Source: Sphyrna mokarran (taxonomy: Eukaryota). From it: a DNA stretch of 64,000 nt. The stretch spans positions 3,410,001-3,474,000 of the forward strand of contig JAGIQG010000040.1 in assembly GCA_024679065.1 (NCBI GenBank), read 5' to 3'. Positions 10,481 to 58,574 of the stretch are shown here, one piece after another (position 1 is the stretch's first letter; the number at the start of each line of letters is the position of its first letter). Under the pieces are notes generated by a model that had not been told where the DNA came from, ran no database searches, and was given only the letters and a program-made list of their open reading frames with translations. Both the position numbers and the translations under genes were made by a program.

Positions 10481-12572
10481 ATGCACGGGCGAATATCTGG
10501 TGTAGTTTATGCCATTTATTATCCAATTCTTGCTGCCATTGGAGTTCCGGGTAAGTCGTGGTACTAAATCATTAACTTGACGCATCAATGATTTATGAAG
10601 TTAGCGCTGATTATGGTAACAAAGAACATGACATAATTCTTTCCAGATATCACCTAAAATGTATTTTATTCAAACTTAAGTTTTACTCATAAAGTCTCTG
10701 ACATATTCAATGCTCTATGGCTGTTATTGCCAGCATGTATATATTGAGACGAGGCTTTTCACATCTTTGTGACCTATATTTCCTGGGCATTCAGCGATAG
10801 AGTGTAACGTGAGAAAACTTTTCCTGTAATAAAATCTTTGGGCATGGTTCCAAAATCAGTCGGCACAACCTCCCAGTATTTACACTGTGAAGTCTCTTGA
10901 AAATTTCGTTTGTTTCAACGAGATCGCCTTCACTCTTCGAAACTCCAGTCCTTTTTTTTCACTTCTCTTTATGGAACAATGAGTATCATTGCTCAACAGA
11001 TTGGAAATGTATTTTCCAAGCAAGCGGGATTTTTGATGAAAACACATCTGATGCTCCTTAAGTTGCGTCAACTTGACATCATATTTACTGAAAATATTCC
11101 CGTGGAATCCTAACAAGAAAAACCGAATTCTTATTACATTATCACATTATACATTTTAACAACACAAATGTAACTAAAATGTTAACCGTATTTACAGACT
11201 ATTCTGCTCATCTGTTACATGGTCCAAAGATTGATTGCCGAATCTTACATGCAGCCCCGAGATCTTCAGCCTTTCGTTCCTAACCGTTGCAATTCCCACT
11301 TTGTACCAACACTGCCTTTCTTCCTTACCCTGCTTATTACATAGTTTCCCTGTGTGTATGATTGTCAAGTTATTCAGCATTTAACTTAATTTCGCCTCAT
11401 GTTGTTAGGAGTCAAATTTTGCTGCATTTCTTTTCTGTGAAGCGACATGAGACACCCTTAGCGCTAAATTTGCGACATAAATGAAGTCTTCCCTTGAGCT
11501 GTTTTTGAAACATAATTAACCTTGAAAAGCCTAGAATTGCTGTCTTCCATAACGCATATGAAACAGCAAATGTGTCACAAAAAGAAAAAAAAAACGCAAG
11601 ATGCATGTATGTGCTTGGAATTTGTTGAATAAATTTATAACTTTAATTTTGCTTTTGCCCTCAGTTAACTTGATGGCGATTGTGATTCTCTCCCGAGGAA
11701 AGTGTGGTCTCTCCAAATGCATCACTAGATATCTGGTTTCCATGGCAGTGACGGATCTCCTTGTCGTTGTCACCGCTGTCATATTCAACCGGATTATTGG
11801 CATTTATTTTCCAGTAAGTTTTATGTCGTTGACTCCAGCCTGTACTCTGAGTACTGTGATAATCTATGCAGCCACTGAGAGTTCTGTCTGGTTAACCGTC
11901 GTTTTCACCTTTGATCGTTATGTAGCCATTTGCTGCCAGAAATTGCAAGCAAACTATTGCACTGAGAAAACAGCATCAGCGGTGATTGGAATAGTCTGTT
12001 TGTTGAGTTGTTTAAAAAGCATTCCTTGGTATTTTATATATGAGCCGCTCTTTATAATGAACAATGTGCCATGGTTTTGTAATATAAAGTCAGGTTTCTA
12101 CACTTCCTTCTCATGGGCAGCCTATGACTGGTTTGCACGTATATTAAATCCCATTCTACCATTCCTTCTGATTTTGTTGTTTAATGCACTGACCGTCAGG
12201 CACATCCTGGCGGCTAGTAGATCCCGCCGTCGACTCCGGGCTCACAGCAGTGCAGATAATCAGAGTGATCCAGAAATGAAGAACAGGAAGAAATCCATTG
12301 TTTTACTTTTCGCCATCTCGGGAAGTTTCATTCTGTTGTGGATGACATATGTTGTGGATTTCCTCTATGTGAAAATTACAAATGAACCTTATTTCGGAGG
12401 ATCCAATTTCAATGACCCTAAATTCATTCGCCAAGAAAGTGGAAACATGCTGCAGCTGCTGAGCTGTTGCACTAACACGTGCATTTATGCGGTGACGCAG
12501 AGGAAATTCAGAGAAGAGTTGAAACACGCAGCAAAATATATTGGTAGTCTCATTGTAAGCATAGTAAAGTAG
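10481..12572 (+). CDS. GPR139/GPR142-like class A GPCR (copy 1), 325 aa; coding exons 10481-10550 and 11665-12572
   Basis: Exon 1 MHGRISGVVYAIYYPILAAIGVP with phase-1 GTAAGT, joined to VNLMAIVIL. Seven hydrophobic segments, FDRYVAIC, TM7 NTCIY. Likely non-coding exon donor at about 10362. Confidence 0.9.
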
Positions 12573-14499
12573 GAAATCCAAAAGGTTTGGTTTAAATTAC
12601 AAATCGAAATGTATCTTTTCATCACTGAATTTTTCACCTTGATACGTGGGGTGAAATTGGTCTTCGGCAGTTCTGTAACAAAACTACCACGTGTTTCCCT
12701 TTTATTCCACTGAAGTGTCAATTGAAGAAAGTTATATTACATGTAAAGAAATTAGGTGCTTTCTGGTCACCAGGCTGAGGTAACCAGTCCATTCCATTCT
12801 GTCTCCATTCTTCGTTAGACATTTCCTCTTAAGAAAATAAGAATCGGGAGACGAGAGGATACTCGTCTCCTCCAATCAGTGCATTCATCTAACATTTTAT
12901 GAGCCAATCTTCTTCATGAAATCTGCTCTGCCTCTTTATCCCTTAAACCACTCAGTGCACCAAAATTCATCAACATCAACTCTGAACATGTTTAACAATT
13001 GTATAATCACAGCTATCAAATTATGAAATCCAAAATTATCAACAATTTGAGAGCAGCTATTTCTCATCATATCAGCCCTTTTTCATTAATCTGAAACTCT
13101 CATTCTCCACACTATCTGAATGGGGAAATAGCTTCTGAGTATCCATGCCGTCTACTGCAAACGGGAGTTGAAGTATGTCACTGAGGTCTTCTCATGTTCT
13201 GAATCTCCAGACAATATACCTATACGATTCAATTTTCACCCCATCTCTCTCGCAGTTCCTGCCTCTGGACAGAAAAAGGGTAGTAATCTCGTAGGTTTAG
13301 AGGTCTTCAGAGGTCAGAAGTGAAGTGCTGAAATAAATCAGTGAAAAACATTATTTGACGATTTTCCCATGTATAAATTGTTGAGCTAGTTTAAATGCAG
13401 GTACTCAGTCTTTGAGAAAACGTTTCACATACTAAGGCAGTCAGGAAAAAAAATCAGTCCGTCATAAACCTCAGGATCTTCAAGGTTTCAATCAAGCTGG
13501 TTCTTAATCTTGTCAATTCTCACACATTGTCTGCATCTAATACACATCTGTTATATACTTGGAAATGTTAAATATGAGTGTATCCCAGAACCAAGAGGTG
13601 TAACTTGGAACACTGGTGCTTAGTGCTTTATATTTCTATTTGGTATCCATTAAGTACGATATATAAATCTGGGAGGAATAATCAAGTCTTGTTGTGATCA
13701 TTTAATAAAGAACATTTATTAACATAAAAAGAAAAACGTATGATAAGCAGGACGATAATAAACCAAAACAGTGCATGTAACTGCACTGATGGCTATAAAT
13801 ATGTACGATAACACGAAGTAACATCTTTTCCCCCAACGATCAACTTTTCCTGAAATCTGACATGCCCCTTATTGCCAAACAACAACCAATATTATAGAAC
13901 TCTATAAACATCTGGAGCGCACAAGTTCTATTTCCCTGAACATTGAAGTTACATCTCCCATATCTGATTGTATTCCCCCAAATCGTATATGTAAGCCCTT
14001 GCTTTTCAGACTGGCATTTTAGTTCACATATCAGTACCCACTTCTTTCAGCTGTCCTCATAAATTTCCTTTTTAAATTTATATTATCCAATTTTCTTTTT
14101 TTAAAATAGTTTTCTTTCTAATCTATTTCCCCCCCCAGTTCTTAACAAATCGTTTTTCCCTTCTGGTTTGTTCCCTGGCTCCTCGTGTTGAAAACCTTTG
14201 CAGCATTCCGAAGGATTTATCCTTTGGGGAGTGAAAAATACATGAAAGTAAAACAGAATGAATGTGCAGAGGAATTACGCTCCTGAATAGTGGACAAGCA
14301 GGAAACGAATGCAGATAGTCAACTGAGGACAACACTTGAATAATAAAGATAGAATTTGGCATGATCCAGGGCAAACTAACCTCCACATTGGAACCCTTTC
14401 TGTACATTGACATATATCAGCTCTCGTTAAAGCCTTTTGTCAAGCTGCATCATCTCAAATTTCAGCTGTCACCCGTTTACCGATTCTGCTACCTACGCC

Positions 14500-15350
14500 C
14501 GTCCATTTGCAGCTGAAGGGTACAATTCTCAATCTGTGACACATTTCGAAATGTTTAGAAATTTCAATCAATATGACAATAACACGGAACATATATAGTG
14601 CAGGACAGTGATGCTAGCACTGAACTTTGAGGGATCAACCATTGTTTGTCACCGAAAACTAGGTTGCTAAGGCAAATGGGGCAAAAATGAGATTGTCCGG
14701 ATCACGGGTTTGAGGAGAAAATAAGACCAGCGTGGGGGAGATTACAGACTGCATGTTACCGATGTACTTATGTACACGTATCACAACATGTCAGCATTGC
14801 AGATACGGTACATATTCAGAAAAATAAACAGAATATTCTGACTATACAGGGTGTTGGTGAAACCAGAGCTAAGCACAATTTTGTTGTCCTGATTTAAGAA
14901 TGTTTATACATGCATGGAAACGGTTCAGGGCGATTCATTACATTATTTCCGGAGAACAAGTGTTTGAATTATGACAAAATACTGAGTTGCAAGTGCCGAC
15001 ATACACGGGAGTATAGAACAGTAAGAGATGATCATTTGGAAGCATAACCTTTTTCAGCGGATTTGACAGCATGTGATGTGGAGATTGGAGAAAGGAGAAC
15101 TTGTGGCACAATTTCAAAATAAGGGGTCACCAACTTATCAGAGATGAGGAGGAATTTCTTCTCTCAGTCACTTTTTATGTGTCCTTCAACATATGGAAGG
15201 CTGATTTGGACATGTTTCTAATCTACAATGGAGATAATGATACAAGGGCGCAGGCAGCAAAGTAGATTTAAGTCTACAGTTAAATTAATTAGTGGAAAAG
15301 GCAGATTTTCAGATGGTTCTCAAAGCGCAATAGATTAACTACTGAATGAA
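14500..15350 (+). mobile_element. Old, highly decayed CR1 fragment
   Basis: Residual 3' similarity (gagatgaggaggaatttcttctctcag). Confidence 0.45.
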
Positions 15351-15835
15351 ATGAAACTCCACAGTTATTGGGAACGGTCTGGCTTGTGAATATCGGTAAA
15401 TTGCTATTGTAATCGCTCGCATGGAATGGAAGGGCTAAAAGCATGGATGTGCTGTAATGATTCTATGATTGTACTCCATGTGGAAGGCGGTGGGCGAAGT
15501 AGAAAATCTCAGCAGTAGTGATCATAGCATCAGAAATTGATGTTATCAATAGAAAAGTTTGCGGGGCAATATAAAATAAAAACTGAAGGAGAAATTGTGC
15601 CACCAAATTGAGGAGAAATATTGATCCAGTAAACTGCAGTCTAATGCCGCTAGGCACTAATGTATTGGATCAGTGGATTCTGATTAAGAGAAACATAGTT
15701 TTGTTACAGTTGCTAAGCAGGAGACCAAGCCGTTAGCAGGACTGAAGTCCAGCTGAGAGAACAACAGGGTGAAAATCGACAGGGAGAACTATAGAAAACG
15801 ATACAAAAAAGAACAGAAACAGAACGAGGGACAAC

Positions 15836-15937
15836 ACATGCACGCGTGCACAGAACACACACACACACACACCCATAAACACACGCGTGCGCGCAATACA
15901 CACACACATTCACATGCGCACGCGCGCGTACATACAC

Positions 15938-15968
<31 letters not shown>

Positions 15969-16015
15969 TATACACACATACACACACACTCAAACACATG
16001 GACAAACGCACACAC
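15836..16015. repeat. (CA)n-type microsatellite
   Basis: Direct inspection. Confidence 0.95.
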
Positions 16016-16410
16016 AATAATCCAGCTCAGTTTCTGTTCAATGCCAATCCAGAGGATGGTAATATTCGGAGATAATTAATACCATTGCATGTCAATGGGA
16101 GATGAGTCCGAGTGCAATGCGTCTGATGGGGGCGATGAAAACGGGACTGTGAGAAAAGAAAACTGAGAATGAGGGAGGGAGCATGGGAGGAAGAATGACA
16201 AATATAGCAGTCAGGCATACGGGAACAACATGAAGAGATTTGCCGAAAGAGTCTGTGCAGATGGAAAAAAGCCTAACCGACAAGATACTGAACCAGATAC
16301 AAACAATTTAACTGGTCAGTGTGTCTAATAGAACGTACATCACATTGCTGCGGCAGTTGCAAAATATCACAGCTTATGTGGGTTCGAATGTCATATTAGA
16401 AAGAAGGAGC

Positions 16411-16450
16411 ACTTTTTGTACGGGATCCAAACTGACCTGGTAACACTGTG
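16411..16450 (-). other. RSS with 24-bp spacer
   Basis: CACAGTG (16450-16444) + 24 bp + ACAAAAAGT (16419-16411). Confidence 0.85.
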
Positions 16451-16803
16451 TGTCGTAGTACACAGTAATAGACTGCACTGTCAGAGAACTGCGCATAGTG
16501 AATGGTTAAATGAACAGTTCTTGCTGTATTATCTAAAGTAGCATAAATCAGCCGCTTCCCAAAGGCAGTCACATTTTTTCCAGTACTCGTTTTTTCTAAT
16601 AGATATTGAGGGTGTTGTTCTGGGTGCTGAATGTACCAGAAGAAAACAGGAGAAGTATGTGACGTCGAATAATTGCAGCTTAACTTCACACTGTCTCCGT
16701 AACTCACTCTGATACTCGGTGGATCCTGAAACACTGCCTCCATTCCCTCACTGGCCTGAATAAGAAGGATGAATATCGATGTCAAACAGAGAAAACGCTG
16801 CAT
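16451..16803 (-). CDS. TCR alpha/delta-type V segment with leader and V in one exon
   Basis: MQRFLCLTSIFILLIQASEG continuous with MEAVFQDP...LSCNY...FWYIQ...DSAVYYCVLR, then RSS. Confidence 0.88.
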
Positions 16804-16857
16804 GATATCACAATACAGAACACAACAGCAACACAGATTCAGATCCTTAGTAATAGG

Positions 16858-16875
16858 TTTATAAATCATGCGTCA
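16858..16875 (-). promoter_or_regulatory. Putative V promoter (TATA-like and CRE-like)
   Basis: TTTATAAA at 16858-16865 and TGACGCA (minus) at 16875-16869, 55-72 bp upstream of the ATG. Confidence 0.5.
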
Positions 16876-19621
16876 CTCCACTCCATCTCAACAGTGAAGC
16901 TAAATGAGCCAAAACCTGAAATGTGAACTTGAATGTATATCTATGCGACCGATGAGGGGAAATGACAACTTAGATGACGGAACGAAAGGTTTTCTGACAG
17001 ATATCACTTTCCATCAGCCCTCCAATCGAAATCACGAAAATCGATGACCTGGTCATCAGTTTGTTCTTTGTGGAATTTGATGCGCGCCAATTAACTGCCA
17101 TGTTTCCTATATTAAAACAGCGATGAAAATTCAAAGACTTTTTTGGCTGTAAAGCGCTTTGTGAAGTCCTGATGTCATGAACGGCGGTATGTAAATGGAA
17201 GTCTTTCTTTATTGTCCTTGAGGAATAGAGTGCGAATCAGAATTATCTGAGGAATTGCAAGCATTTACTCTGAGTGCAGTTTTAACCGTTTCCATCAAAC
17301 TCAATATCAGGAGTTTCTTTCTCAGTATCTTTCCGATTTTGTATATCTTGATGTCATCCCATAGCTCTTCACCTCGACAACCCTTATTGCGTCCTTCACC
17401 ATGTCTCTGTATGGGAAGGCAGGTGGTGGAAGAAATATGCAGACAAATTATACAATAATAAGAATGGAGATTTTTATTGTCTCGTATTAATTCCATGCAA
17501 GAAGTCGGTAAAGGCGGTAATCGAATAGCTTCCTGCGATTCGTTTCAGATGCTTCTATGATCAGGAATGTTGGGAAAAAAAACACCAACATGGGAAGATT
17601 TCATATTGTATCTTGTAGTCGGGAAGAAAGCAGATGAGATTAGAGAAGTAACTGGAGGGAACATCCAGCAATACAGCTCATACTTACTAATTAAGAGGTT
17701 CGAGATGAGTAAATGTTTGATGGAAAACAACTAATCACTTGATTCAGTGAGAGGCATACTGAATGGTACGCAGTGAACCGGTATGTTTGAGTGATTCAGG
17801 AAGATGATTCAATCTATTCAATAAAGAAAATTCAATAAAGAAACTCTCAGGAATATTTGAGCTACATTGCTGGAAGTAAGTTTACCAAAGCTGTTCCAAA
17901 TTATGTTTGCATAAGACATATGGAGGTTAGGGGATGCAGTTGATGGAACGATCAAGAATTGTCTTTGAATCCGTACGGTGCAGACGGAGGCAATCAGACT
18001 CTTCGAGTTTGCAGTGACTCTCTGGGAGACTATATTTTCCAGATACGTTTCCCTACTCTATCACCGTAACCCCACTGATTTGTCCTGTCTATTTATTCTA
18101 ATCCACAAATTTCTGAGCAAATTGGCATGCTCAGTGTACCTGCCTTGCGCATCATTGGGCTGTCGGAGGAAAGGGACTCCCTGCACTGACACTGAGAGCA
18201 TCTACAAACTCGATGTAGCCTGAAACTGAACCCGGATATCTGGAACAATGAGGCAGCAGTGCTCATCACTATGACACCATTGTACCACTTAATGGCAGCC
18301 AAGCACGCACGAAGGGTTCAATGACCCATCGCATGATCTGCAATTGTTGTGGATTTACAGAATGTCCTTGGTGGTTTACACATTTCCTCGTGCGGATGAG
18401 AGCAGTGAAGATAAGGTGGTACTGCTCCTGTGGATGAATGCCAATGAAATTCGAAATTCAGCCATGATCTGGTCCACTACTTTTGCCTTCTTTGCCTGGG
18501 TACAGACAGCAAGCTCTCCAACTTGTATTCCATTCGGTGTCCCTGTTGGGCGAATTGTTCCTCTTTGGAAACGGGATGTCAAGGGAAAAAAAACCTTCAT
18601 TTTGTTATTGGAACGAAGAAGCAAGGAGTGTTGATGGAACTGGTGGATTTCCAATCAATGATCTGTGGACATTCTCTTAACTTTAGCATACGTGCATTAG
18701 TGCCTGAGACTCCAGTGAGAGTCCAGAGAACGATAGAGGCTGTGGGCCAGAGAATAATTTAAAAGTTGAGTGAAGCCAACATTTTAACTTGAACTTATGC
18801 TACGGTTCAAGAAGATCAAGGTAGAAAAGTGGGTTTAAACAGAAGATGAACTGTAATCTGACTGAAAGATAGAACAGATTTGCAGACAGCCTAATTTTTA
18901 TGTTCGAATGTTCAAATATCATTGGTGGGCTGCGAGATACTTTGCAATCTTCGTTGTTTTGCTAAAGGAACAGGGATTTCGATCAGGGAGTTCTAGTTGT
19001 CTGTTTATTGTTCCTGAGATAATGTAAAACTTGTGCTGTGGATGCTGTACTGAAATATGACCATGCCTGAAATCAGTAGGATCAAACTGTTATAGTGCAA
19101 CTGATTATGACATTGCGTTTGCTTCAAATGTCCGCTCAGGAAAAAAAGGTGAACTTTGTAGTTGTGGCACCATCCTGATGTAATACACTGGAAAGAGTCA
19201 AATTCAAAAATTTCCACTTATTCTTCTTAATCAATATCGACATGAGGTCTCTGGACAAATAGTTCACAGACTCAGAATGATGTTTTGGTAAAAGTAGTTC
19301 AATCCCACCATATGAACTGGTTACATTTAAATTCGATTTTGGATACAAAAAGTTAAAACGCTGCCCCAGCAGCTGGTTAAATTTAAATGCGATTAATTTA
19401 ATTTAAATGCACTGATGGTGCGCGAACGCTGTCACTGCAAATCCACTTGCACTCTGCAGAAGGAAATCTGCTTTCATAGCCTGGCCTGGTCTGTATGTGA
19501 CAAGAATATATTAACTCTCAAATAGCCTAGCCGGTTTCGAAGATAATTAGTGATCGACAAAATCTTGGTCTTGTGATCGACACTCATTTAATACTTCTTT
19601 AAACTGTAGTCATCATTTAAC

Positions 19622-20235: not shown

Positions 20236-20494
20236 AATAGTAATATCTAAATTACAGCAATGAGGAGAATAACATTTTTTCAACTTCTGATTGGGAAGGA
20301 AACGCAAGTGAAAAAAGTGATCTATTGACGAGGAGAAGTCCGCTTTTACTTCCTTCTCCCGAGTCTGTAACGCTGCAGTTCAGGAGTTATTCTCCTGCAG
20401 CGGAAATACGGATTCAGACCCCATAATGACCGTAGATCCTCCCGCATTTCTGATACAGCCATGTCAAACAAGCAAATCGGCAGAACTCTCTTCA

Positions 20495-21937: not shown

Positions 21938-21951
21938 GCGCCATCTAGTGG
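21938..21951 (-). promoter_or_regulatory. Consensus CTCF-binding motif
   Basis: Minus strand CCACTAGATGGCGC matches the CTCF core consensus. Confidence 0.6.
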
Positions 21952-28848: not shown

Positions 28849-28982
28849 NNNNNNNNNNNNNNNNNNNNNNNNNNNNNNNNNNNNNNNNNNNNNNNNNNNN
28901 NNNNNNNNNNNNNNNNNNNNNNNNNNNNNNNNNNNNNNNNNNNNNNNNNNNNNNNNNNNNNNNNNNNNNNNNNNNNNNNNNN
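28849..28982. other. Assembly gap
   Basis: Run of N. Confidence 1.
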
Positions 28983-29110: not shown

Positions 29111-31689
29111 CTACTGTTTAAAATCACCAGTGAACATGGTGAAGGGACAGATCAGCAATTTCCTCAGCTCCTTTCTGAACTTGGTCTGAGTGACTGCATA
29201 GATGAAGACGTTGTTGCAGGAACTGAGTGTCTGGAGCATGTTGGCCGCCTCTTGAAGAATATAGTCTGCGTTACTGAAATTCAGGGCGGTGAGGTATCCC
29301 GCACCTGCGAGCCGTGCGTAGAGGAAATGTCCGACGTAAGTGGCCCACAGGAGAAGAAAACTGAGTGAAATGGCGAAGAGCAAAACAATGGACCTCCTGC
29401 GGTTTTCTATCTCCCGGTCTCCCTGGTTCTCTGTACCGCGGAGTCTCCTCCGGGCTCTACTAGCTGCTAAGATATGTCTTACAGTCAGGGCGTTGAGTAG
29501 CAAGATGAGGAGGAACGGAAGAAGTGGGGTTACGATTTTGTCTAGCCAGTCATAGGTCAGCCAGAATGGCGATGTGTAGAAGGTGACCTTCATGTCGCAA
29601 AACCAGGGCACCCCATCCAGGATGTACAAGGGCTGGTAGACGAAGTAGTAAGGGACGTTTTCCATACAGCTGAGGGCACAGATTATTCCTATAATTTGCA
29701 ATGCTGTTTTCTCGGTGCAGTACCTGGTCTTCAGGTTCTGACAGCAGATGGCCACAAAACGGTCGATAGTGAAAGCCACAGTCAGCCAAACTGAACCATC
29801 CCGAGTCGCAAATGCCAGCAAGGCGTTGGCTCTACATCCGGGGGTGGTGGACAGGACACTATTAGAAAAGTAGATGCGGCCGATCCGATTGAGGATGACG
29901 GCAGTAATGATGACCAGGAAATCGCTCACTGCTATCGCCACTAGGTAGTAAGTGATGCACCGGGAGAGTCCACACCGCCCTCGGCATAAGATCACAATCG
30001 CTAACAAATTGGCTGTGAGATAAAAAGAGTGAAAAGTTACAGAGCGGAATCCAAACACCAGCTACTGACTCATTCAATCGGTTATACAATCCGTCCAGAT
30101 CTTACCCTTTGCCACCCCCAAACTCCAGCAGTTGGCATTCGTTCAATATCAAACGCTGAACTAAACATGTGTCATCGTAGACAGCATTGCGAACTGGGCA
30201 CGCCACAAATTCTGTTTTTTGGTCAGCTTAAATCTAGCTCATTTCAAAAAAATTGCTGCTGATGCCGTTACTCATGACAGGCCCAGTCCATCAATCAAGT
30301 CTATGTTCGCTGGTCTCCATTGGTTCCCAGTCCTGGAATGTCTCGTTTCTCAGAATTTCTTTCTTCTCATGTTTAATTCCCTCCATATTCTCGTCACTCC
30401 AGGTCGGTGTAACTTCCTGCAGTCAACTGAATTCAGTTTACCTCCAACTCTACACCGTTGTGTGTTTATCCCGCCATTGCCAGCAGTTGTGCCTTCAGCT
30501 GCTGAGGTCCTAACCTCTGGAACTTCTACTTTCAACAGCTGTTTCTCACCATCTTTCTTTAGGACGATCCTTTTAACTTAATTATTTGATCCACTTGTGC
30601 CGTTCGGTTTCAAATGTCTTTGATCAAGTTCCCAGCATACATACTATAGTGGCTGAAGAAATAAGAACAACTTTACCTTACCCACTGCAACTCTCGATGA
30701 ACAATAAATATTGGCCAGCCACGGAAAACCAAAAGAAAAATATCCAGGATAAAAGTCAAACGTACAAAAAGTCAGCACAAAAAAAAACATGCATAGCAAA
30801 TTGAAAATTTGATTCACCATTCAGGGAACCCTACGCTGCAGAAGGAGGCCATTCGGCCCATTGACAACAATTCCACACAAGCACTAACCCCATGACGTCA
30901 TGCATTTACTCTAGCTACTCCCCCTCAAAACAAGAGACAATTTAGCATGGCCAATCCACCTAACCTACACATCTTTGGATTGCGGGAGGAAACCCGCGCA
31001 TTTCCTTAAAATCTTCCTTAAATAATTCCTATAAACACATTAACATTGCCCAGTAGTAAATCACGGTATTTTAGTTATTAAATTGTTGCCGACGGCGCGC
31101 TGTAAATTCTTGAAATCACTATAAGATTTGAAAAAAAAAATTAATTGCATTTAATTCAAAGAATACAGTTTAGTGGTTAATTCGCCGATGTGTAATAAGA
31201 TCACTGCGTGGAAATTCATGTTACTTCGCTGTTATGCGGTATTATTGTAAAATAGCATTCAGAACACCAGCGAATTTTACTACATCTAATGAAACTCAAA
31301 GTCGAAAATATAACAGATGCAAAGACATCAATTAGTCCAAATTAGGCAACCCAATAAAATGCATTTATATCCTTGTGTGCGGCGTAGTAGTTTGAATATT
31401 GTCTTGGAATTATCCTTGATTCAATCAAATGCATCGTAGAATTTATCATTACATGGTATAATATCATGGTATTATATGGTCTAGACATATATTGGTACCC
31501 GGTTGAAGCCCCTTAAACGCATGATTGCTAAATAGTAGAATGATCCCGTTCCTGAAAGAGACCCAATTTATTGTTCTTTTTAAACAACATAAATAACTTA
31601 TTTGTGATCCATTACTTACCAGGGGCACCAATAGCAGCAAGAACCGGATAACAAATGGCATAGAAGAGGCCTTTCGCTGGTCCGTGCAT
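29111..31689 (-). CDS. GPR139/GPR142-like class A GPCR (copy 2), 323 aa; coding exons 31689-31620 and 30012-29111
   Basis: Exon 1 MHGPAKGLFYAICYPVLAAIGAP with phase-1 GTAAGT, joined to ANLLAIVIL; TIDRFVAIC; TM7 NVFIY; frame open. Confidence 0.9.
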
Positions 31690-32135
31690 CGTCTCTCAGA
31701 AACTATACAGTTCTCAGAAGCTCAAGACTTAGCTCTGGGACACATTCAATGAGGTCCTCATTTATTGTGAATGAAAGTCTCGGGGGGGGGAGGGTGGGGG
31801 GCGGGATGTGCAATTAAACAACAAACTGCACCTTACTTACGTTTCAGTAAACAAAGACATCAAATCACCATTTCAAGTCTTCCACTTGTCACATTGGCTG
31901 CGTGGACGATTCCTTTCCTGTAGATGGGCGGAATTTATGCGTCTGAATGGTTCACTCTCATAATAAAAAAAGCCTCAAGTTTAACTAACAAATAATTCTT
32001 CAATTTCTTCCATTTCAAAATAATTGAATTCGTTCAAAAGCTGACGATAGTCAATCGCAAATAAGCACCATGGGACCTATATTACCCGGCGACTTCATTC
32101 CCACTGTTGCTCAGTTATGCAGTTTGCAATTCAGT

Positions 32136-32290
32136 NNNNNNNNNNNNNNNNNNNNNNNNNNNNNNNNNNNNNNNNNNNNNNNNNNNNNNNNNNNNNNNNN
32201 NNNNNNNNNNNNNNNNNNNNNNNNNNNNNNNNNNNNNNNNNNNNNNNNNNNNNNNNNNNNNNNNNNNNNNNNNNNNNNNNNNNNNNNNNN
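32136..32290. other. Assembly gap followed by GA/CA microsatellite to about 32500
   Basis: Run of N. Confidence 1.
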
Positions 32291-36674: not shown

Positions 36675-36713
36675 AGTTATTGTACGAGTGTTGAACAGGT
36701 TGGTATCGCTGTG
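36675..36713 (-). other. 23-RSS
   Basis: CACAGCG + 23 bp + ACAATAACT. Confidence 0.88.
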
Positions 36714-37160
36714 AGAGTCAGCGCGCAGTAGTACATGGCTGTATCAGAGAGCTGTAATTTGGAGATGGTTAACGTAAAGATGCCATTAGAACTGTCCAGC
36801 CCAGAGGAGAAACGGCTTCGAGCAAAATCCGCTTTAATTTCGTAACCAGTCGAAAGTGTGCGAATTAGTATTTGTGGTTCTGTCCCAGGGAATTGCTGGA
36901 CCCAGAACAAACTGAAGGAATTTTCTGTCGTGAAGTAGATGCAGTTTAAAGTTGAAATGCCTCCTTCTGTCCTAATCACTGTTTGAGGGTGTTGGGTGAC
37001 AGAGAATTCCTGACTGAAACCTGGATTCAATGGGAAACAAAGTCAAACATTAAACCGTGACTAGATACCAAGCGCTGTTCGCGGTTTGTTCAAAATCGCA
37101 CCCAAATTAATTACCTGTAATAAACGCTCCAAACATGGCACAGACACCGAATAGCCGCAT
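36714..37160 (-). CDS. TCR alpha/delta-type V segment; leader exon 37160-37115, V exon 37020-36714
   Basis: Leader MRLFGVCAMFGAFIT, 94-bp phase-1 GT-AG intron, SVTQHP...TLNCIY...FWVQQ...SDTAMYYCALT. Confidence 0.92.
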
Positions 37161-39061: not shown

Positions 39062-39100
39062 AGTTTTTGTACGAGAGTTAAAGCTCGATGTAACGCGGTG
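39062..39100 (-). other. 23-RSS with variant heptamer
   Basis: CACCGCG + 23 bp + ACAAAAACT. Confidence 0.8.
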
Positions 39101-39751
39101 CTTCATCGCCGCGCAGTAATACATGGCTGAGTCAGAAAGCTGAGTGTCTGTGATGTTCAAAGGGATGTTTGTACTAGTTCTATTCTGTACAGCAGAAAAC
39201 CGTTTTCCAAATGCCGGCGCATTCTTGTCATTACCAGCAGTATGTCTGGTCAGCATGTATTGAAGACTCTGTCCCGGGTATTGTACATACCAATACAGGT
39301 AAGCTGCTGTGTATGTGGCGGGGTAGCGACAGGACAACACCACGGTATCCCCTTCACTTACTGCTACTACTGCGGGCTTTTGGAAAAGTTCATCCACCCG
39401 GGTCTGCGCTGGAAAAAAATAACTGAATGTGACAAACGTAACTTTTAGATGTGTTTTTGATTTAAAATGAAACACGTTTTGAGCACAATTTCTCTCTCTC
39501 TCAAACTCATGCACTCTTACAGACGAAAATGCATACATTATTTCTCTCTTGCTCTTTCTATCACATTCAATCACAAAAACATATTCTCTCTTTCACCATA
39601 ATAGGTTCTCTAATACAGACAAATGTATATACAGTTATAAACAGATAGACACAGAAATTCACAAAACACAGGGACACGAACAAAGATACACAAACATCCA
39701 TACACAGTGAGCCAGACGCAGAAATATAGCCAAACACATCGATACAGATAC

Positions 39752-39786
<35 letters not shown>

Positions 39787-40527: not shown

Positions 40528-40569
<42 letters not shown>

Positions 40570-49700: not shown

Positions 49701-50000
49701 AAATCATGATAAATAGCAATACCCAGGGGGGCCTTGATGTGCATGTACAATGGTCTCCTAATGTCGGAAAACAGAGGGATAAAGCAGTTAATAAGGCATT
49801 TGGTATATTTGCCTTTTCGAGCCGAGGCATAGAGTTCATGAGAGCAGGAAACTGATATTGCAGCTATTACAAACAATACTGCAAATAATTTGCAGTATTA
49901 CAAACTACAAATAGTTGGTGTACAGCGTGCAGCTCGGCAATCCACTTCGCAGGAAAGATGCGATAGCAAAGGAAAAGCTGCAGAAGAGATGCACACAGCT
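46790..50000 (+). mobile_element. Several decayed CR1 fragments (about 46790-47600, 48100-48500, 49330-50000)
   Basis: KSCLTNLIEVF, IYINDLDEN..VSKFAG, KAFGIFAFS pieces. Confidence 0.7.
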
Positions 50001-50609
50001 ACTACCAGGGCTGTGGAATTTTTGTTATCAAGTGTGATTGCATCGACTGGGGAAACCACGGTCCTTACCAGGCCCGGTCTACACGTGACTCCAAATCCCC
50101 CTTGATATCGTTCATTTTTAACTGCATTGTGAAAGGGATGAGCAAGCTATTGATTTGAATGGTAATCAGAGATGATTTTCAAACGCTGGCCCGGCTAGCG
50201 ATGCCCACATCTTATGAACGAATGAATGAAAAACAAAACTAATATTTTGTTTGATTTCTTGTCGAACATAGTGACATATCGTGTATACTATTATTTAAAA
50301 TTTTTCTTTAAGGCATGTGTGGTTCAGACAGAAAAACTGATGCACTTTGACCCAAAGACAATACGCAGCAGTTGTTGACAATCCCATATCACAACAGAAA
50401 TTTTTGAAAAACTGAAGAAAATAGAGTGAAATAGAGTGAATGCTTCAGGACGGTGATATTTTATCAGGGAAAATTCAGATATTTAGTTGTTTACTAACCA
50501 GTGCAGAGTCAGGGAAAAGATAGAGGGGAAGGAGGAACAAACAAATGGTCTTATGATAGGAGGGAAGGCTGGAGTTATTATATGACAAGGGGAATGATGC
50601 TAAGAGACA

Positions 50610-52470
50610 TTAAGAAGTCTCACCACAATTGGTTAAATTGCAACAGGTTTATTTGGAATTACAAACTTTCGGAGCGCTGTTCCTTCCTCAAGAAAGTGAA
50701 GACCTGGGTTCTGAAAAAAAGGCATATAAAGACACAGGCTTTACAGGTAATCAGTCCTTTAGATGGACAGATGAGAGTGGAGAGAGCGATAATCACAGGT
50801 TAAAGAGGTAGAATTGTCCGAAGCCAAGATAGTTAGTAGGATTTTGCAACATTGGGGCTTACATATCGTATGGCATGAACCCAAGATCACGGCTGCGCCA
50901 TTCTAATGCATGCCAAATTTAGCTATCAATTTTTGCTCGGCGATTCTGCGTTTCCATATGTCTTGAAGGCCATCTTATAGAGCAGTTATCCGAAGATCGG
51001 AGGCTGAGTGTCTTTGACTGCTGATGTGTTCCCCAATGGAATTCGCACGGACTTCCTCAGAGATCAAATACGGGACACGGCTGACAGTATCCTTCATCGT
51101 TCAATACTTCTCCGGAGCAGAGAGACTATCCGATCTTCTTAGGAACCTTCAACATATCAATACTGCAGGAAAGTTGGCGAGACCATGCAGACGCTCTGAC
51201 AACGGATGAACGGACACAGCACAACAATCGCCAGGCAGGAATCTTGCTTCTTGTTGGGAAACATTTCGGCAGTCAGTGGTATTCAGCCCCCAATCTTCGG
51301 GTAGGCATTTTCCAAGGCAGCCTTCAAGACACACGACAACGCAAAATCACCAAGCAGAAACTTACAGCCAAGTTCACATGAAGACGCCCTCAATTTGGAA
51401 TCTTTGGTTCATGTTCCACTACGTGTAACCCCCACTATGTGGCCTGAGTTTGCAAATCTTACTGACTGTCCCGGCTTGAGACAATTCCTACATCTTTAAC
51501 CTATGGTTATCCCTCTCTCCACTCGCAATGTCTGTAACTGTAAAGACCCGATTACCTGTAAAGACATTCCTTCCATCATTATCTTTCAATTTTGTCTCAG
51601 TCTATATATACATGTTTGTGAACCCAACTCTCCATTCACTTGATGAAGGAACAGCACTCTGAAAGCTCGTGATGCCAAATAAACACGTTGGACTTTAATT
51701 TGGTGTTGTGAGACTTCTTATTGTGACAACCTCAGTACAACGCCACATGGCCATCATGAACAGTGCAAATTGTCGGCTTAAATTGGAGAGGATTTTCAAG
51801 GATATTACACACATCGGCACAGACATCAAGTTTCTACAAAGATGCAAGAAAGCAGACAAGATTCCGAAAGGATTATAGATCACAAACCTACTCAACTCGA
51901 CATACAACACAGACTAGACTGAGGGATTTTGCTGTCATACCTCTCTCATAACCCTCAACCACCTCATACATCAGCTCTACAGCGGATGTCACAACTTGGA
52001 AGCTAAGATAGTGTCCATATTCTGAACTTGTGCTTAGGATGAAGCTGACCAGCAGTGAGACGCATCCAAACACACAAGAGAACAGATTTACGCCACGGAC
52101 AGCATACCAAGAATAGGAAACTTAGGAAACTCGGTATCCCTACCAGCAGCAAAAAAGTCTCCCAATGGTATAACGGTAGAATACAGTACCATTGCAGGGA
52201 AGTTCCTTGTCAACTTGACGGACTATATCCTTCAATCAGACGAAATCGGAGGTCTCAGTCGAGTTCTCAATCCTAACGCTAAAATGGATGTTGGTCTTGC
52301 AACAGACACAGAGAAATTCACCAGGCGAATGAGGCTCTGACAGTTCTTCCACAACCCCAAGAGACCAACAGCGAACCCAATGAGAGAACACGATTAACTC
52401 ACCTGATGAAGGAAATGCGCTCCAAAAATTGGTGATTCCCAATAGACTTGTTGGACTTTAAACTGGTTGA
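50610..52470. mobile_element. Penelope-like retroelement relic with inverted terminal arm
   Basis: Plus strand near 51175 reads GETMQTL*QRMNGHSTTIARQ (GIY-YIG region); near 51757 MNSANCRLKLER..DIKFLQRCKKADKIPKGL; 50610-51040 is the reverse complement of about 51250-51725. Confidence 0.75.
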
Positions 52471-52480
52471 GCAATCAAGT

Positions 52481-52770
52481 ATCTGATTGGCTGGTGCCGT
52501 CATTTAGCAAACGATCCTCTGATCGCCTGAAGAGGTCAGTTAGGGATTTAGTCGCTGATTGGCTGAGGTGATCATTTAGCCACCGAGTCCATGAATAGCT
52601 GAGACAGTCAATTAACAATCTACTCTCTGATTGGCTGAGGTTGTCATTTAGCACTACACTCTCTGATTGGCTGTGGAAGTTGTAAGAAATCTGGTCTTTG
52701 ATTGTCTAAACGATAAATTATTGATCTGGTCTCTTATTGGCTGAGGAGGTCAGTTAATGATCTTGGCCTT
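52481..52770. repeat. Eight-unit 36-bp tandem repeat carrying CTGATTGGCT
   Basis: ATTGG or variants at 52486, 52522, 52558, 52594, 52630, 52666, 52701 and 52736. Confidence 0.85.
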
Positions 52771-52782
52771 ACTGGATGCCAA

Positions 52783-55700
52783 TCAGTTTTGTTTCTTCAT
52801 TAAATTAATAACTGATGCAATTGGATATTTCAGCGTGATTCTGATCTGCTCCCTGAATTTGGATTGAGTCACTGCATAGATAAATGTGTTTGTGCAGCAA
52901 CTAAAATCCCGCAACAAAAATCCGACTGTTTGAAATGTATATTCCGGAATAGTGAGATAAACTAATCCTCTTACATCTGCATAGAAAAATTTTATAACAT
53001 AAATCGACCAGAGCAGAATAAAAGCTCCAGATATGCTGAAGAGTAAAATCATTGACTTCCTTCTGCTCTCCATCTCTGGGTCTCTGCATTTATCTCCCTT
53101 TCTCTGTGCCCTTAGCCCCTTCCGTACTCGACTGGTCACTAAAATGTGACTGACTGTTAGAGCATTAATAAACAGAATTAAACTGAATGAGAGCAGTGGG
53201 GTTAAAACCTGATTAAACCAGTTAAACCCAATCCAACCAGGATCAGTCCAAGCGCTTGCCTTGGCAATACAGCCCCACTTGGCATTGCCGATTATGAATT
53301 GAGGTTCATATATAAAGTAAAACGGGATGTTTTTTGAAGAAAGCAATATGCCAGTTGTTGCCAGAACCATAGCTGCAGTTTTTCCAGTGCAATATTTAGC
53401 TTTCATTTTCTGGCAGCAAATGGCCACAAATCGATCAAAGGAAAAAGTGACGGTGAACCAGACAGAACAATCTGCAGCTGCAGTCTCCAGGACAGATTTA
53501 ACACGACATACGTATGTGAGGGAGAGGAAATTCAGAGGGAAATAATAATTATTTATGTAGTTGAGAATGGGGTTTATGATGATGAATAATAGGTCCACCG
53601 CTGCCATGGCTACCAAGTAACGAGTGGTGCAGCTGGAGAGGCCACACTTTCCCAGACTCAGGATCACAATTCCAAGTAAATTAACTGTGAGAGAAACAAG
53701 AAATAAGAACCTGAAAATGAGTGAATATACATTCTCCATATCTGAAATGATAGTAAGGAGACCATTCCAATATCAATCCAATGGGCACGAGTTCCCAGAG
53801 TTAGAATGTTGTTGGAAGATGCTAATCTGTTAGAGATTAGCATTACAGACTGTAAAGTAGCCAATGTAACACTTTAGGTTAAGCATGGCTGGAGGATAGA
53901 AAGCTGTGAGTTACACATCTTTCACTTGTTAAAGCAAATCTGCATATTCTATTCATATGAATATGACTGAGAGGTTGGATTTCTGAGTTGACCTATTTTA
54001 CAGGATTGACTCAGACTGGACGGGTTTCCTAATTAGGCTTGAAACCTACAGAAACATGCCAGGGATTGGCATCAGTACTTGCCATCCCTTCCTGCATCCA
54101 ATTATCACAGCCCACTCCCGATTGAACACTTCCCTGGACTGCTCAACTGATGGATTTTGATGTCACTTCGGGATTATTTGTCCTCTCTCCAAATCTGTTC
54201 CTCATTCTGTCTCTTTCTCCCAACTTTTCAGCTTTTCGTTTCCAGATCTCTTATTCTCAAAAGTTATCTCTCTTTCCATTCTTCTCTCTCTATTTCTATG
54301 TCTCCCCGATTCTTCCCTAATTTGACTCTTGCTATCCTCTTCCACTCTCTTGGCAGTTTTCTTCTCCCACCCAATCTGTTTCCATTATAAACCTCATTCT
54401 AGCTTTCTCCCATTATCTGTCCGTCTCCCTTCAAATATTTCTCGCTCTCTATCTCCATATCTAACAGTCTTTCCCCAGCATCTATCTCTCCTACTGTTTA
54501 ACATAGAGTAATAGAAGATAAGTGCAGGAGGAGGTCATTTGGCACTTCAAGCCTTCTTTACCATTTATCACGATCATAGCTGATCGTCCAACTCCCAAGT
54601 GGTACATCTGGCCGTCTTTTGAATACGTTGAATATTTGGCCTCAACTGCTTTCTGCAATAACGAATTCCAAAACATCACCACTCTATGGCTGAAGAAATG
54701 TTTCCTCCCTTCTGTCCTAAATGGTCTACGCTGTATTCTCAGACTGTTACACTTAGTTTTGGACACTTTCCCCATCGGCAACACCTGTTCTCGTCCTGCT
54801 AGAATTTTATGAGTCTTGATGAGCTCTCCCCTCATTCATCTGAACTCCAGCGACAGCAGTCCTAACCTAGCCAATCCCTGTTCATACATCAGTTCCGCCA
54901 TCCCCTGAATCAGCCTGCACTCTCTCGAGAGCAAGAACATGCTACCTCAGAAGAGGAGATCAAAACGGCACACAATATTCGGGATGTGACCTCACCAAAA
55001 TCTGTATAATTATTACACTCGAAACATTTCACCATTAAGGACCACATACTATTTGCCTTCTATACAGTTTGCTGCACCTGCATGCTTGCATTCAGCGACT
55101 GGTGAATAAGGTCACCCGGCATCCGCTGCACACGCCCCTACCTGAATTTACAGCCTTTCAGGTAGTAATCTGCCTTCTTGTTTTTGTTTCCAACCGAATA
55201 TCCTCATTTTTTTCAAAGTAAGCTGCATCTCTTATTGATTTATCCACTCACCCAACCTATCCAGATCATGCTGATGATCTCTGCATCCTCATCATCCCCT
55301 CTCTCCCACTCATGTTGGTAACATCTGCAAGCTTTGAGATGTTACATTTTATTCCCTCGTCCAAATCATTAATATATGCTGTGAATTGCTGGGATCTCAG
55401 CACCGACTATCTACTACTACACAATTTGAAAAGGACCAATTCATTCCTTCTCTTTGTTTCATTTTTGTCAACCAATTTTGTGTGCATCTCAATACACTTC
55501 CCCCTATCCTATGTGCTGTAATCTTGATAATCCCTCATTATCAAGAGGAATTTGTCAAATACTTTCTGAAAGTCCACATATATCACTTCGACTGGTTCCT
55601 CCCGTCAACTCTACGAATAATATCTCTAAAGATCTTTCTCCCCATATCTTTCTATCTGTCTCCAGAATTTCTCTCTCTCTCTCTCTTTCTCTCTGTCCTA

Positions 55701-58574
55701 ATTTCTCCCCATTCCTGTTTATCTCTCCCAGCATCTCTTCCGCGCTCTCTCTCCCAGTGTTAGGTGTTTGATTTTAAAACACAACAGAATGCCATGTGGA
55801 AACAAAATGACAATATCCTGACAGGATAACGGGGAAGCATTTCATTCCCCCAGCCCACGACTGGTAAAATCCGACCCTAACCCTTGAATGCCATGTTTAC
55901 TCTGAGTTCGGACACATCTCCCTTCAGTGACAGAAACATATAAACATCCATGTTGAAAGTGGGAAAGTATTGTGTTCCTTCAGTAGATTTCTAAAATAAG
56001 GTTCCCCCTATGTTTATTTATGTATTAATTTGTGTATGTATTTATACATTGAACTGATATCTGTAAATCAGCAATCCCAGAGGGCTGTTTCGAAGTTTTC
56101 TCCAGAGATAGCAAACTGGGCGACAACCCCAACCTAAAGACCCCCAGATATTGTATCTCATCTTACTGTCTCACAGCAATGTGTTTTGTGGTTATTGACA
56201 ATGTTGGTCAGAAATATTGTGTCGCTCCTTTGAACACAGAATGCATGACATACAGGGAAAGTAGCAGAGATATGGACAGAGAGAAGAAAGTAGGAGGGTG
56301 AAATAATTGGTGGTTGGTTTGGTGCGGTGACCAGGACCTAGATAAGAACATCCATCTTTACAATTACAGAACGACAATGGCAGAAGGAGGAAAAGGAATG
56401 ATGAAGGTGAATCAGAGACAGATGGAAGCCGAAGGTCAAACCAGAGGTGGTGATGGAGGAAGAGGAATTGAGAAAGAGAAACATGATGTGACAGTCTCCA
56501 GGCTATAGTCATTGGATGCAACTCCAATCATACCTTTCAAGTAGTTTGACTTGTGCAGAAAAATGACGGGAGTATGATTTTAAAATTGTCAGGAAGGAGT
56601 CAACAGCCCCATTCCAAAAGAAAGAGCGATTTGAGTAGCATTTGGGTACTGAGAAGGGGGCAGGGGATTGGTAGGGTGGAGGAGGACTGGCATTTTTATT
56701 CAATATTAGAAGATTCCGTTCGTGGATGTCTATGTTTTTCCATTTCAAATTTATACCTGATTTGAAGAAATGGAGGAAAGGAGAGAGTGAGAGAGAATGA
56801 GGAGACCGAAGAGGAGAGGTATAGAATAATAGAACCAGGCAAAGCAGGAGCTCTTTGGTCAATTGTGTCTGCACCTGCACGCGATAAGCAATTGAAATCA
56901 CATCTAATCTCATCTGCCAGCATTTGGCCCATTGCATTGAAGGTAAGATGTGTCATGTGCTCATCTAGATACTTTTTAAAGTACGTGAAGCAACTCGCCT
57001 CTACTAACCTTAGAGACAGCATATTGCAGACCCGCTGGGTAAAAATGTTTTTCCTCATAACACCCCTAAACATCCTTACCCTCACCTCGAACAAATATCC
57101 CCTTGCGACTGATCACTTAATTAGGAAGAACAACTGTTCTTTCTCCACTCTGTCCACGTCTCATAATCTTGTACAACACAATCAGATTGCACCTCAGTCT
57201 TTCCTGCATCAACGAAAATAACTCAAGCCTATCTAACGCCTGTTAATAACATTTATGTTCCATCCCAGGCAGTATCCTGGTGAATCTCCTCTGCATCCAT
57301 CTAGTGCAATCACATCCCTTCGAAAAAACAGCTTCCAGAATTGCGTATGATACTTTCGTTGTAGCCTCACCAATGTCCTACACAATTCCAACATGACTTT
57401 CCCGCTCTTATAATCTATGTCTCGAGTGCAAGTGTCCCATACTTTTCCACCACCCTACTAATTTCGGCTTACAGAGATCTGTGGGCAACTATGGCAAGTT
57501 GTCGTTGTTCCACTGAACTTCCTCGAGTCCTACCATACATTAAGTACTTCCTTATCAAATTACTCCTTCCAAGCGTATCCAAATTCCACCTGCCACTTCT
57601 CTGTGCATTTGGCATTTCCGTCCCTATCTTTTGATAGCCCAGTGCATAACGCACTCTATTAAGCACTCTTCCATTTTCGATGTCATCAGCAAAATTAATA
57701 ATTATACCCCTCACATAGTCATCAACGTCATTTGCATGAATTATGAAAAATGGGGGCCAACACAGATCTCTGTGGTACGCCACTGGACACTGGCTTGCAG
57801 TCAATAAAACAGCTTTTATCATCACCCTCTGTTTTGATAGCTGAGCCAATTTTGAATCCACTTTATCAAATTTCCTTATATCCCATGTGAATTTACCTTC
57901 TTTACAACTCTCCCATGTGGGACCTTGCGAACACTTTGCCGAAATCCGTATAAAGCAGATAGTTTCTTCTGGCATCTTGCTAAACATACATACTGGCCTC
58001 CAATGTAACACTGACCACACTTGAATGAAGAATTAATTCTTAGATTGTAAACACGTGGATAGATAATGTCAGAAATAGATCGATATTTAGATTAGGTATT
58101 CCACTCTGCTGAAAATAGCAGTATAATTCTACGCTGATAAGTAAACTGTGTAACATTTATGTCAGATATTCCAGCCTAGCGAGTGATCCACATGCAAAAT
58201 TTGATTTTATTTTATTCCTGTAAAAACAGGAGAGACCTCCTTCACTGAGATCCAATCTCTAATTGTATAAAACAATATTAAATACAATAATTTCATTGAT
58301 CAGTGAGACCGTGATGTTTATCTATTCATGCCAATAATTAAAATCATAGACATAATACAATATATTGATTTTAATGAATTGCATCATTCACCTGGCGTAT
58401 TATACCAGTGAACTTGAGATCAGTGAGGGACATTCTCACTCAATGTTTAAAATCAGGAAGTCGTTCATACAGGAGTTTACACGACTTGCTTGGTTGTGGT
58501 CACTTACCAGGAACGCCAATAATAGCAATGATTGGGTAGATTATTTTCGCAGCTTTCTCAACTGGATACAACAT
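52783..58574 (-). CDS. GPR139/GPR142-like class A GPCR (copy 3), 322 aa; coding exons 58574-58508 and 53684-52783
   Basis: Exon 1 MLYPVEKAAKIIYPIIAIIGVP with phase-1 GTAAGT, joined to VNLLGIVIL; FDRFVAIC; TM7 NTFIY; likely non-coding exon donor near 58794. Confidence 0.88.
54500..57965 (-). mobile_element. Decayed CR1 fragments in the GPCR intron (about 54500-55450 and 56860-57965)
   Basis: MRGELIKTHKIL, KNIFTQRV, INFADD pieces. Confidence 0.75.

Follow-up and report, generated by a model that had tools for sequence, protein, structure and literature searches.

A GPR139-related receptor family expanded in sharks and rays has intact members among T-cell receptor V segments of Sphyrna mokarran

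Background

Genes that do not rearrange occur in mammalian antigen-receptor loci: the available part of PMC8945572 places trypsinogen-like genes T4 to T8 between TRBV29-1 and TRBD1, and the olfactory receptor (OR) gene OR10G3 at the border of TRA/TRD. We describe here a comparable situation in a shark. The sequence analysed, called the window below, is a stretch of 64,000 nucleotides from Sphyrna mokarran (GenBank assembly GCA_024679065.1, contig JAGIQG010000040.1, positions 3,410,001 to 3,474,000), in which three G protein-coupled receptor (GPCR) genes, G1 to G3, are interleaved with V segments. The contig, designated C994, is 12.33 Mb long, and the window corresponds to C994:3.410-3.474 Mb. 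As with the trypsinogen genes of TRB and the OR genes of TRA/TRD, members of a multigene family that do not rearrange lie within a V array or next to it, where they are subject to changes in copy number and to loss by V(D)J deletion. Unlike the mammalian passengers, the shark GPCRs, which belong to an undescribed family, occur throughout the V array, the NAR-TCR cassettes and the immunoglobulin heavy-chain (IgH) clusters, with at least 86 loci in about 9.5 Mb. The interleaving of GPCR and V genes in itself has these mammalian precedents and is probably without function.

The surroundings of the window resemble a second described system, the elasmobranch antigen-receptor complex (AgRC), in which, as far as the available part of PMC12227049 goes, alpha/delta V segments of the T-cell receptor (TCR), NAR-TCR cassettes and IgM clusters are intermingled in both orientations on one chromosome. 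The available text and Table S1 of that paper are without a GPR or G-protein entry, and 'GPR' has no occurrence in the main text of PMC12227049, PMC10751288, PMC10620051, PMC11979771 and PMC8455134. Beyond the AgRC description, C994 has two J-alpha/C-alpha modules and ten C-delta-type exons. A literature search, which left the subscription nurse shark TCR-delta papers mostly outside its scope, found no description of an expansion of GPR139-like genes in chondrichthyans, nor one of GPCRs located in a shark TCR locus. The available portions of PMC8455134 and PMC11979771 report a paucity of GPCRs in shark genomes, with very small OR, TAAR and ORA repertoires.

Passenger families in TCR loci being already known, what appears to be new is the presence of this GPCR family in a shark TCR locus; we add the J-alpha geometry, a genome-wide count, the direct duplication of blocks containing V segments and GPCRs, and the lack of a sign of it for G1 to G3. 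We hold it to be rather probable that the three genes are intact members of an orphan family, related to GPR139 and GPR210 and expanded in sharks and rays, which lie inside a TCR-alpha V array where V-J joining would delete them, and that they are likely passengers working as variable-pocket chemical sensors in non-lymphoid cells.

Results

Three intact receptor genes among V segments

The gene models of G1 to G3, rebuilt from the window (Table 1), give spliced reading frames without stops. Exon 1 consists of 23, 23 and 22 codons plus one base in G1, G2 and G3, respectively, and is followed by a phase 1 intron with GT..AG ends (1114, 1607 and 4823 nt) located within the first transmembrane (TM) helix. 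The three proteins are 58, 50 and 47% identical in pairwise comparisons, share the motifs GxCGLS, DR[YF]VAICCQ, D[PR]E[MI]xxR[KR]xS and NTCIY/NVFIY/NTFIY, and match Pfam 7tm_1 with 52 to 85 bits for a cut-off of 30.5. Among named database relatives, the closest to G1 is from the houndshark Mustelus asterias (95%). The AlphaFold2 model of a 95% identical G1 orthologue has a pLDDT of 86 and displays seven TM helices and helix 8. In an alignment of 69 family copies, R3.50 is invariant, C3.25 is present in 65 and the cysteine of extracellular loop 2 (ECL2) in 68. G1 to G3 are rhodopsin-class (class A) GPCRs. A tblastn search of the window revealed no GPCR remnant beyond them, and the two stretches of N (28849-28982 and 32136-32290) are both outside coding exons.

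A preliminary description, made from the letters of the window alone, had proposed three complete two-exon receptors of shared architecture and motifs, and the rebuilt models, the 7tm_1 matches and the motif check agree with it. It had also described receptors and V segments as alternating in both orientations. The alternation holds, the gene order being V1, V2 (a pseudogene), G1, V3, G2, V4, V5, G3, but the V segments are not found in both orientations: the minus strand carries all five, and G1 alone is read from the plus strand. The label 'TCR V segments' fits V3 to V5, which are of TCR alpha/delta type; V1 and V2 are IgNAR-like V segments of NAR-TCR, whose recombination signal sequence (RSS) has a 12-nt spacer.

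Nearly all NAR-like and TCR-like V matches of the genome are on C994, together with many C1 domains, including those of IgM clusters. Judged by this content, the window lies within the shark TCR-alpha/delta-IgH complex and matches the AgRC, in so far as this is described in the available part of PMC12227049.

Predicted loss of the receptors by V-J joining

About 300 kb downstream of the window, as read on the V strand, 34 J motifs with a 12-RSS are aligned on the minus strand (C994:3.080-3.117 Mb), and this array ends in a C-alpha-type Ig exon and a TM exon (C994:3.073-3.074 Mb). The window can be assigned on these grounds to a TCR-alpha V array, the alpha label resting on the length of the J array and on the likeness of the TM exon. 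As V3 to V5 face the array on the same strand, their joining would be deletional: V3-to-J joining would excise G1 and a paralogue at 3.315 Mb, V4- or V5-to-J joining would excise G2, G1 and the same paralogue, and excision of G3 would require V segments farther upstream. The expectation that rearrangement of an upstream V would remove downstream GPCRs is thus borne out by the geometry. Among the near-full V segments with a good RSS in the 264 kb around the window (3.30-3.564 Mb), 10 of 18 are on the minus strand (deletional) and 8 on the plus strand (inversional), so that inversional joins keeping the GPCRs are also possible. The window would allow a precise test, with named genes whose loss is predictable from V usage.

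Two other arrangements were considered. A C-delta between the window and the C-alpha at 3.07 Mb was ruled out, as no V, GPCR or C-delta match was found in C994:3.117-3.30 Mb. A second TCR-alpha-type J/C/TM module is present on the minus strand at C994:4.378-4.455 Mb, a 40 kb sample of which contained 29 J motifs, and each of the two modules has its own upstream V array. Use of this second J array by the minus-strand V segments of the window was rejected, because these V segments are placed 3' to the array on the same strand, and the coding joint would be excised.

Relation to GPR139, GPR142 and GPR210

GPR139 is a two-exon, single-copy gene, highly conserved (70% between human and zebrafish), whose product responds to Trp and Phe through a pocket comprising E3x32, F3x33, H5x43, W6x48, R6x51 and N7x38, according to the available part of PMC7318219. 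When the PDB was searched with a family profile, human GPR139 came first (E 5e-30, versus 1e-24 for the next receptor). With a single sequence, a CCR2 chimera ranked above GPR139, and such matches are too weak to name the family. Foldseek with the model of the G1 orthologue placed GPR139 at rank 1, by a small margin and at 21% identity, and the Atlas neighbours are named GPR139-like or Srw/FMRFamide-like. GPR139 is therefore the nearest characterised receptor, and sequence profile and structural model alike place the family in a broad GPR139/GPR142/GPR210 clade.

With GPR139 and GPR142 the shark genes share the two-exon structure, the short N-terminus, the Pro-less TM7 motif and W6x48. They differ from GPR139 in that E3x32, H5x43 and R6x51 are mostly lost, P6.50 is absent, and the family runs to hundreds of copies where GPR139 is a single conserved gene. 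Position by position, the pocket of G1/G2/G3 reads I/A/E at 3x32, Y/F/T at 3x33, A/D/N at 5x43, W/W/W at 6x48, Y/Y/Y at 6x51 and N/N/F at 7x38, and R6x51 is found in none of the 69 copies. Orthology with GPR139 was rejected on account of the 21% identity in the structural alignment, the copy number and the mostly lost pocket. The likeness to GPR139/142 put forward at the outset is real, then, but distant (E 1.2e-6 with a single sequence), and it is not that of orthologues.

The nearest relatives outside sharks are low-copy receptors of salamander, coelacanth, teleosts and bichir, near GPR139/142. Judged by their taxon pattern and not by matched identifiers, they probably correspond to the GPR210 set of PMC6504862 and to the 'Orphan 139-like' row of PMC5207463. 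The available parts of these two papers, including the account of GPR210A/B by Rinne et al. 2019 (PMC6504862), have no shark in this context and mention no expansion. S. mokarran has apparent single-copy orthologues of the coelacanth and fish GPR210-type receptors at C805:46.8 Mb (63% to the coelacanth protein) and C1104:25.0 Mb. G1 to G3 reach at most 33% with the coelacanth protein, and GPR210A/B orthology was rejected for them, since other loci of this shark, such as the one on C805, take that place. As the shark keeps its own GPR210-type orthologues, the expanded family is a separate clade.

This is also the outcome of a tree of 88 rows (quick LG+G4 search, SH-aLRT support only, six near-duplicate contig rows omitted), in which the family is distinct with an SH-aLRT of 96, the closest rows from bony vertebrates being salamander proteins, on a long branch; the C994 sample of this tree was drawn from G1-like matches and is biased, and the tree contains no full GPR139 or GPR142 sequence. 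A database search at E 1e-5 returned 2461 relatives, the best 120 of which are all from sharks or rays and nearly all automatically named 'probable GPR139'.

Family size and genomic distribution

A strict motif pattern run over the whole genome gave 254 exact matches (none for the reversed control), of which 248 are listed with their position, on 33 contigs. The listed matches number 56 on C994, 32 on C335, 28 on C1548, 24 on C446, 15 on C960, 14 on C894 and 12 on C668. The pattern catches 56 of 135 protein-search matches, a sensitivity from which a genome total of about 600 loci can be estimated. The union of the matches sets a lower bound of 333 loci. The proposal of an expanded receptor family is thereby confirmed, and a single orphan family of at least 333, perhaps about 600 loci seems to have been concealed under the automatic name 'probable GPR139'. 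Three pairs of regions on C994 (5.20-5.29 and 6.18-6.28, 9.63-9.68 and 11.48-11.53, 5.600-5.621 and 5.700-5.721 Mb) have identical protein matches or 99.8% DNA identity; these near-identical blocks may be very recent duplications or uncollapsed haplotypes, and could inflate the counts.

The preliminary description had expected enrichment at antigen-receptor loci. With 56 of the 254 matches, C994 is indeed 50-fold enriched relative to its share of the genome, although this 22% share may be lower in reality, given further motif-negative copies on C446. The other 198 matches are elsewhere. C772, recognised as a light-chain cluster from its VJ and C sequence (its isotype label is presumed), has none of the 248 listed matches, and neither have the two contigs with a TCR-beta-type C, C738 and C949. 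In 180 kb sampled from four clusters outside C994, 12 GPCR matches and no V segment were found, which, with the 198 matches off C994, does not support a general tie between the family and V genes. On contigs longer than 40 Mb, 125 of 129 matches are in the outer half, and 78 of 129 in the outer quarter of the half-contig. The family is neither evenly scattered nor bound to antigen-receptor loci as a class.

Origin of G1 to G3 and duplication with V segments

In the tree, the G1 clade is composed of orthologues from six other sharks and rays and from Mustelus; the six sampled members of the G2 clade are all on C994, and those of the G3 clade are mostly on other contigs. G1 and G2 belong to a larger clade of 34 rows, 22 of them on C994 (SH-aLRT 98). 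A local triplication giving rise to the three genes was rejected, a single three-gene clade having a p-AU of 2e-38.

We then compared the genomic surroundings of the paralogues. The 264 kb around the window hold 7 GPCR genes. DNA homology between G1 and the paralogue at 3.315 Mb (82%) amounts to 78% over 1.9 kb and covers the gene alone; likewise, between G3 and the paralogue at 3.552 Mb (71%) it amounts to 77% over 1.3 kb, again the gene alone. Within this region, no V-carrying unit shared by G1 to G3 and their paralogues was found, though the duplications are old enough for the flanks to have decayed. The situation is different at C994:5.54-5.94 Mb, where 10 GPCR loci of another subfamily are interspersed with 52 near-full V segments. 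V segments and GPCRs alike are contained here in blocks, direct and inverted, with 95 to 98% identity; for example, 5.5416-5.5730 Mb corresponds in inverted orientation to 5.6950-5.6646 Mb, in pieces 96 to 98% identical that include V segments and two GPCRs. Co-duplication with V genes, which had been suggested for the window, therefore does occur as passive block duplication, but it is not supported as the source of G1 to G3, for which homology stops at the gene.

Sequence variation and upstream motif

Mean identity among the 69 copies is 0.18 in ECL3, 0.36 to 0.45 in the outer TM parts and ECL1/2, and 0.64 to 0.79 on the inner face; N7.49 and Y7.53 are as invariant as R3.50, and the pocket sites are variable. 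Pooled by domain, omega (dN/dS) is 0.37 for the outer and 0.26 for the inner part, and of the 17 sister pairs that could be used, 13 have a higher value for the outer part (P = 0.025; one of 18 pairs was dropped for saturated dS). G1 to G3 compared with their sister paralogues have an omega of 0.10 to 0.52, that is, purifying selection. The pattern is one of purifying selection with a freer pocket, and is not proof of positive selection.

Among the 7 genes in 3.30-3.564 Mb, exon 1 could be located for all but one; in 5.54-5.94 Mb it was found for no gene. All six genes, G1 to G3 included, have a compact motif upstream (Table 1), found in 2.5% of random windows, an optimistic background since the pattern was defined and scored on the same six sequences. 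Its parts are labelled by the factors that we take to bind them (homeodomain, O/E or EBF, TATA). OR promoters have an architecture of homeodomain and O/E-like motifs. Upstream of V3 and V4, CRE-like sites are found, without the GPCR motif. In four sequencing runs the intron was covered and no exon 1-exon 2 joint was found; these runs behave as DNA of related species and have no bearing on expression.

Possible roles of the receptors

A large clustered family, a variable pocket and a shared compact promoter are the genomic hallmarks of a chemosensory family, and these sequences appear to have them, the promoter pattern being post hoc. Like OR, TAAR, V1R, FPR and MRGPR genes, the shark genes form tandem clusters with birth and death, have a short N-terminus, combine a variable pocket with a conserved signalling face, and carry the homeodomain and O/E-like promoter; unlike them, they belong to none of these families by sequence. 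The history that we favour for these genes, as intact passengers with a role in chemical sensing, would be as follows. One large clade, with G1, G2 and their kin, may have entered the antigen-receptor complex early and grown in number there as a consequence of the repeated segmental and inverted duplication of this region; other clades would have expanded likewise near chromosome ends and beside the major histocompatibility complex (MHC). In chemosensory cells, each gene would likely be under the control of a compact promoter of its own. Deletion of the gene from a TCR-alpha allele that has rearranged would thus be without effect, a situation presumed likewise for the mammalian trypsinogen genes between TRBV and TRBD. 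If chemoreceptors, the family could be a missing component of shark chemical sensing.

Several observations weigh against this history. No domain has a pooled dN/dS above 1, and the upstream motif was scored on the very sequences that defined it. G1 is 73 to 95% identical to its orthologues across sharks and rays, from the sevengill shark to rays, a conservation that seems higher than expected for a freely drifting passenger. EBF-type sites are also B-cell motifs. C994 has not only the largest count but also the highest motif density (4.5 per Mb, averaged along the entire contig), and the C1548 cluster (28 listed matches, up to 6 more) surrounds MHC class II-type exons, which fits an immune role. 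In the horn shark, 33 of 49 listed matches are on a scaffold equal in length to one with a NAR-TCR V-V model, the two being matched by length only; this suggests that the linkage between GPCRs and antigen receptors is old. The top-50 olfactory list for the catshark, in the available part of PMC11979771, is without GPCR genes, which is neutral to weakly unfavourable.

The positions beside the Ig/TCR and MHC class II-type genes, the linkage apparently conserved in the horn shark and an EBF-like site that EBF1 could read in B cells would suit innate-type sensors of leukocytes or barrier epithelia, similar to FPR or MRGPR, kept in place by shared regulation or selection for diversity, independently of V choice; the variable pocket is compatible with either role. 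Tandem clusters that are as dense but without V segments (C335, C446, C894 and C1548:95.4 Mb), the lack of matches at the light-chain cluster and at the two TCR-beta-type loci, and chromosome-end positions that account for clustering without an immune link make us regard such a role as a rather unlikely, though serious, candidate. If the receptors were immune sensors, the fact that they lie within the antigen-receptor complex and next to the MHC would bear on the ancestral immune complex. We give distinctly less credence to a model in which T cells would express the genes from their TCR-alpha locus once it is opened, and deletional joining would leave each clone with receptors that depend on its V choice and tune how it senses or homes. 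The geometry holds for it, with the 34 J motifs and C-alpha on the minus strand (C994:3.07-3.12 Mb), and the mixture of 10 deletional and 8 inversional V segments would let clones retain different genes. Against it, the genes have their own upstream motif, which is not of V type; hundreds of paralogues elsewhere would buffer a loss; the second allele and the second TCR-alpha module would blur V-linked dosage; the RSS of V3 and V5 are imperfect; and we know of no V-dependent role for the mammalian trypsinogen passengers of TRB, which share the geometry. Equally improbable in our view is its widest form, in which several hundred sensors related to GPR139, a repertoire of sharks and rays so far undescribed, would include an ancient, lymphocyte-expressed clade in the antigen-receptor complex, and RAG-mediated V-J deletion or inversion would couple the GPCR set of each clone to its V choice, V(D)J recombination thereby bringing about, as a side effect, a somatic diversification of a non-Ig receptor family.

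That the copies are without function, as neutral by-products of duplication or of assembly redundancy, is very hard to credit. Some C994 blocks may be uncollapsed haplotypes, as said above, and 6 broken copies were found among the 40 that were sampled on other contigs. For G1 to G3, however, which are intact and well diverged from one another, this reading is largely refuted by dN/dS values below 1 and by orthology across species, G1 having orthologues from the sevengill shark to rays.

Other features of the window and of the contig

Table 1. Positions of the receptor genes, their upstream elements and the V and J segments in the window
Feature	Position	Strand	Remarks
GPCR G1	10481..12572 (exon 1 10481-10550, exon 2 11665-12572)	+	325 aa, intact
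GPCR G2	29111..31689 (exon 1 31689-31620, exon 2 30012-29111)	-	323 aa, intact
GPCR G3	52783..58574 (exon 1 58574-58508, exon 2 53684-52783)	-	322 aa, intact
Upstream element of G1	10353..10425 (approximate limits)	+	TTTGTT, homeodomain-like TAATTG, O/E(EBF)-like TCCC..GA, A-rich TATA-like stretch
Upstream element of G2	31755..31855 (approximate limits)	-	Same element as G1
Upstream element of G3	58650..58738 (approximate limits)	-	Same element; homeodomain-like part weaker
NAR-TCR J	949..1038	-	23-spacer RSS; belongs to V1
V1, NAR-TCR V (IgNAR-like)	1355..1865	-	Leader, extended CDR3-side coding stretch (probably a V-D join in the germline), 12-spacer RSS
V2, NAR-TCR V pseudogene	8198..8719	-	Stop and frameshift; 12-spacer RSS
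V3, TCR alpha/delta-type V	16411..16803	-	One open frame for leader and V; 24-nt RSS spacer
V4, TCR alpha/delta-type V	36675..37160	-	Leader exon; 23-spacer RSS
V5, TCR alpha/delta-type V exon	39062..39408	-	23-spacer RSS, heptamer with 2 mismatches

V3 is peculiar in that it is without a leader intron, the leader being continuous with the V domain, and in the 24-nt spacer of its RSS. For V5, a search for a leader exon gave no convincing candidate. The top PDB matches of V1 and V2 are VNARs (E 5e-19). The supporting V of V1 lies just beyond the window (C994:3407558-3407280), and V1, the J segment and this supporting V form a NAR-TCR cassette; relatives of V1 carry the NARTCR annotation in Table S1 of PMC12227049. 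The 12-RSS of the NAR V suggests a germline V-D join, and the 'gj' label in that table likewise implies germline joining (PMC12227049). The cassette (V with 12-RSS, J and supporting V) is also present as an inverted duplicate with 86 to 89% identity (in the region C994:3.396-3.413 Mb).

Thirteen C-delta-type Ig exons were found, ten of them on C994 (3.869, 5.363 and 10.45-12.31 Mb) and the others on C47, C180 and C1271. They are 76 to 82% identical to the constant region linked to NAR-TCR, and the copy at 3.869 Mb has five J motifs upstream. This suggests several TCR-delta/NAR-TCR miniclusters instead of one C-delta, some copies of which may be assembly duplicates. Two similar TCR-beta-type constant exons are on separate contigs (C738:57.9 Mb and C949:12.7 Mb), and a cluster of germline-joined VJ-type domains at C224:87.15-87.96 Mb (including 87.2 Mb) contains no GPCR motif matches. 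Directly after the supporting V-delta, on the minus strand (C994:3407263-3406661), there are about ten tandem units of 61 bp resembling a 23-spacer RSS. A shorter array of the 61-bp unit follows the inverted copy of the cassette (C994:3400624-3401300, plus strand), and one database protein reads through this RSS-like repeat, which thus occurs in another record.

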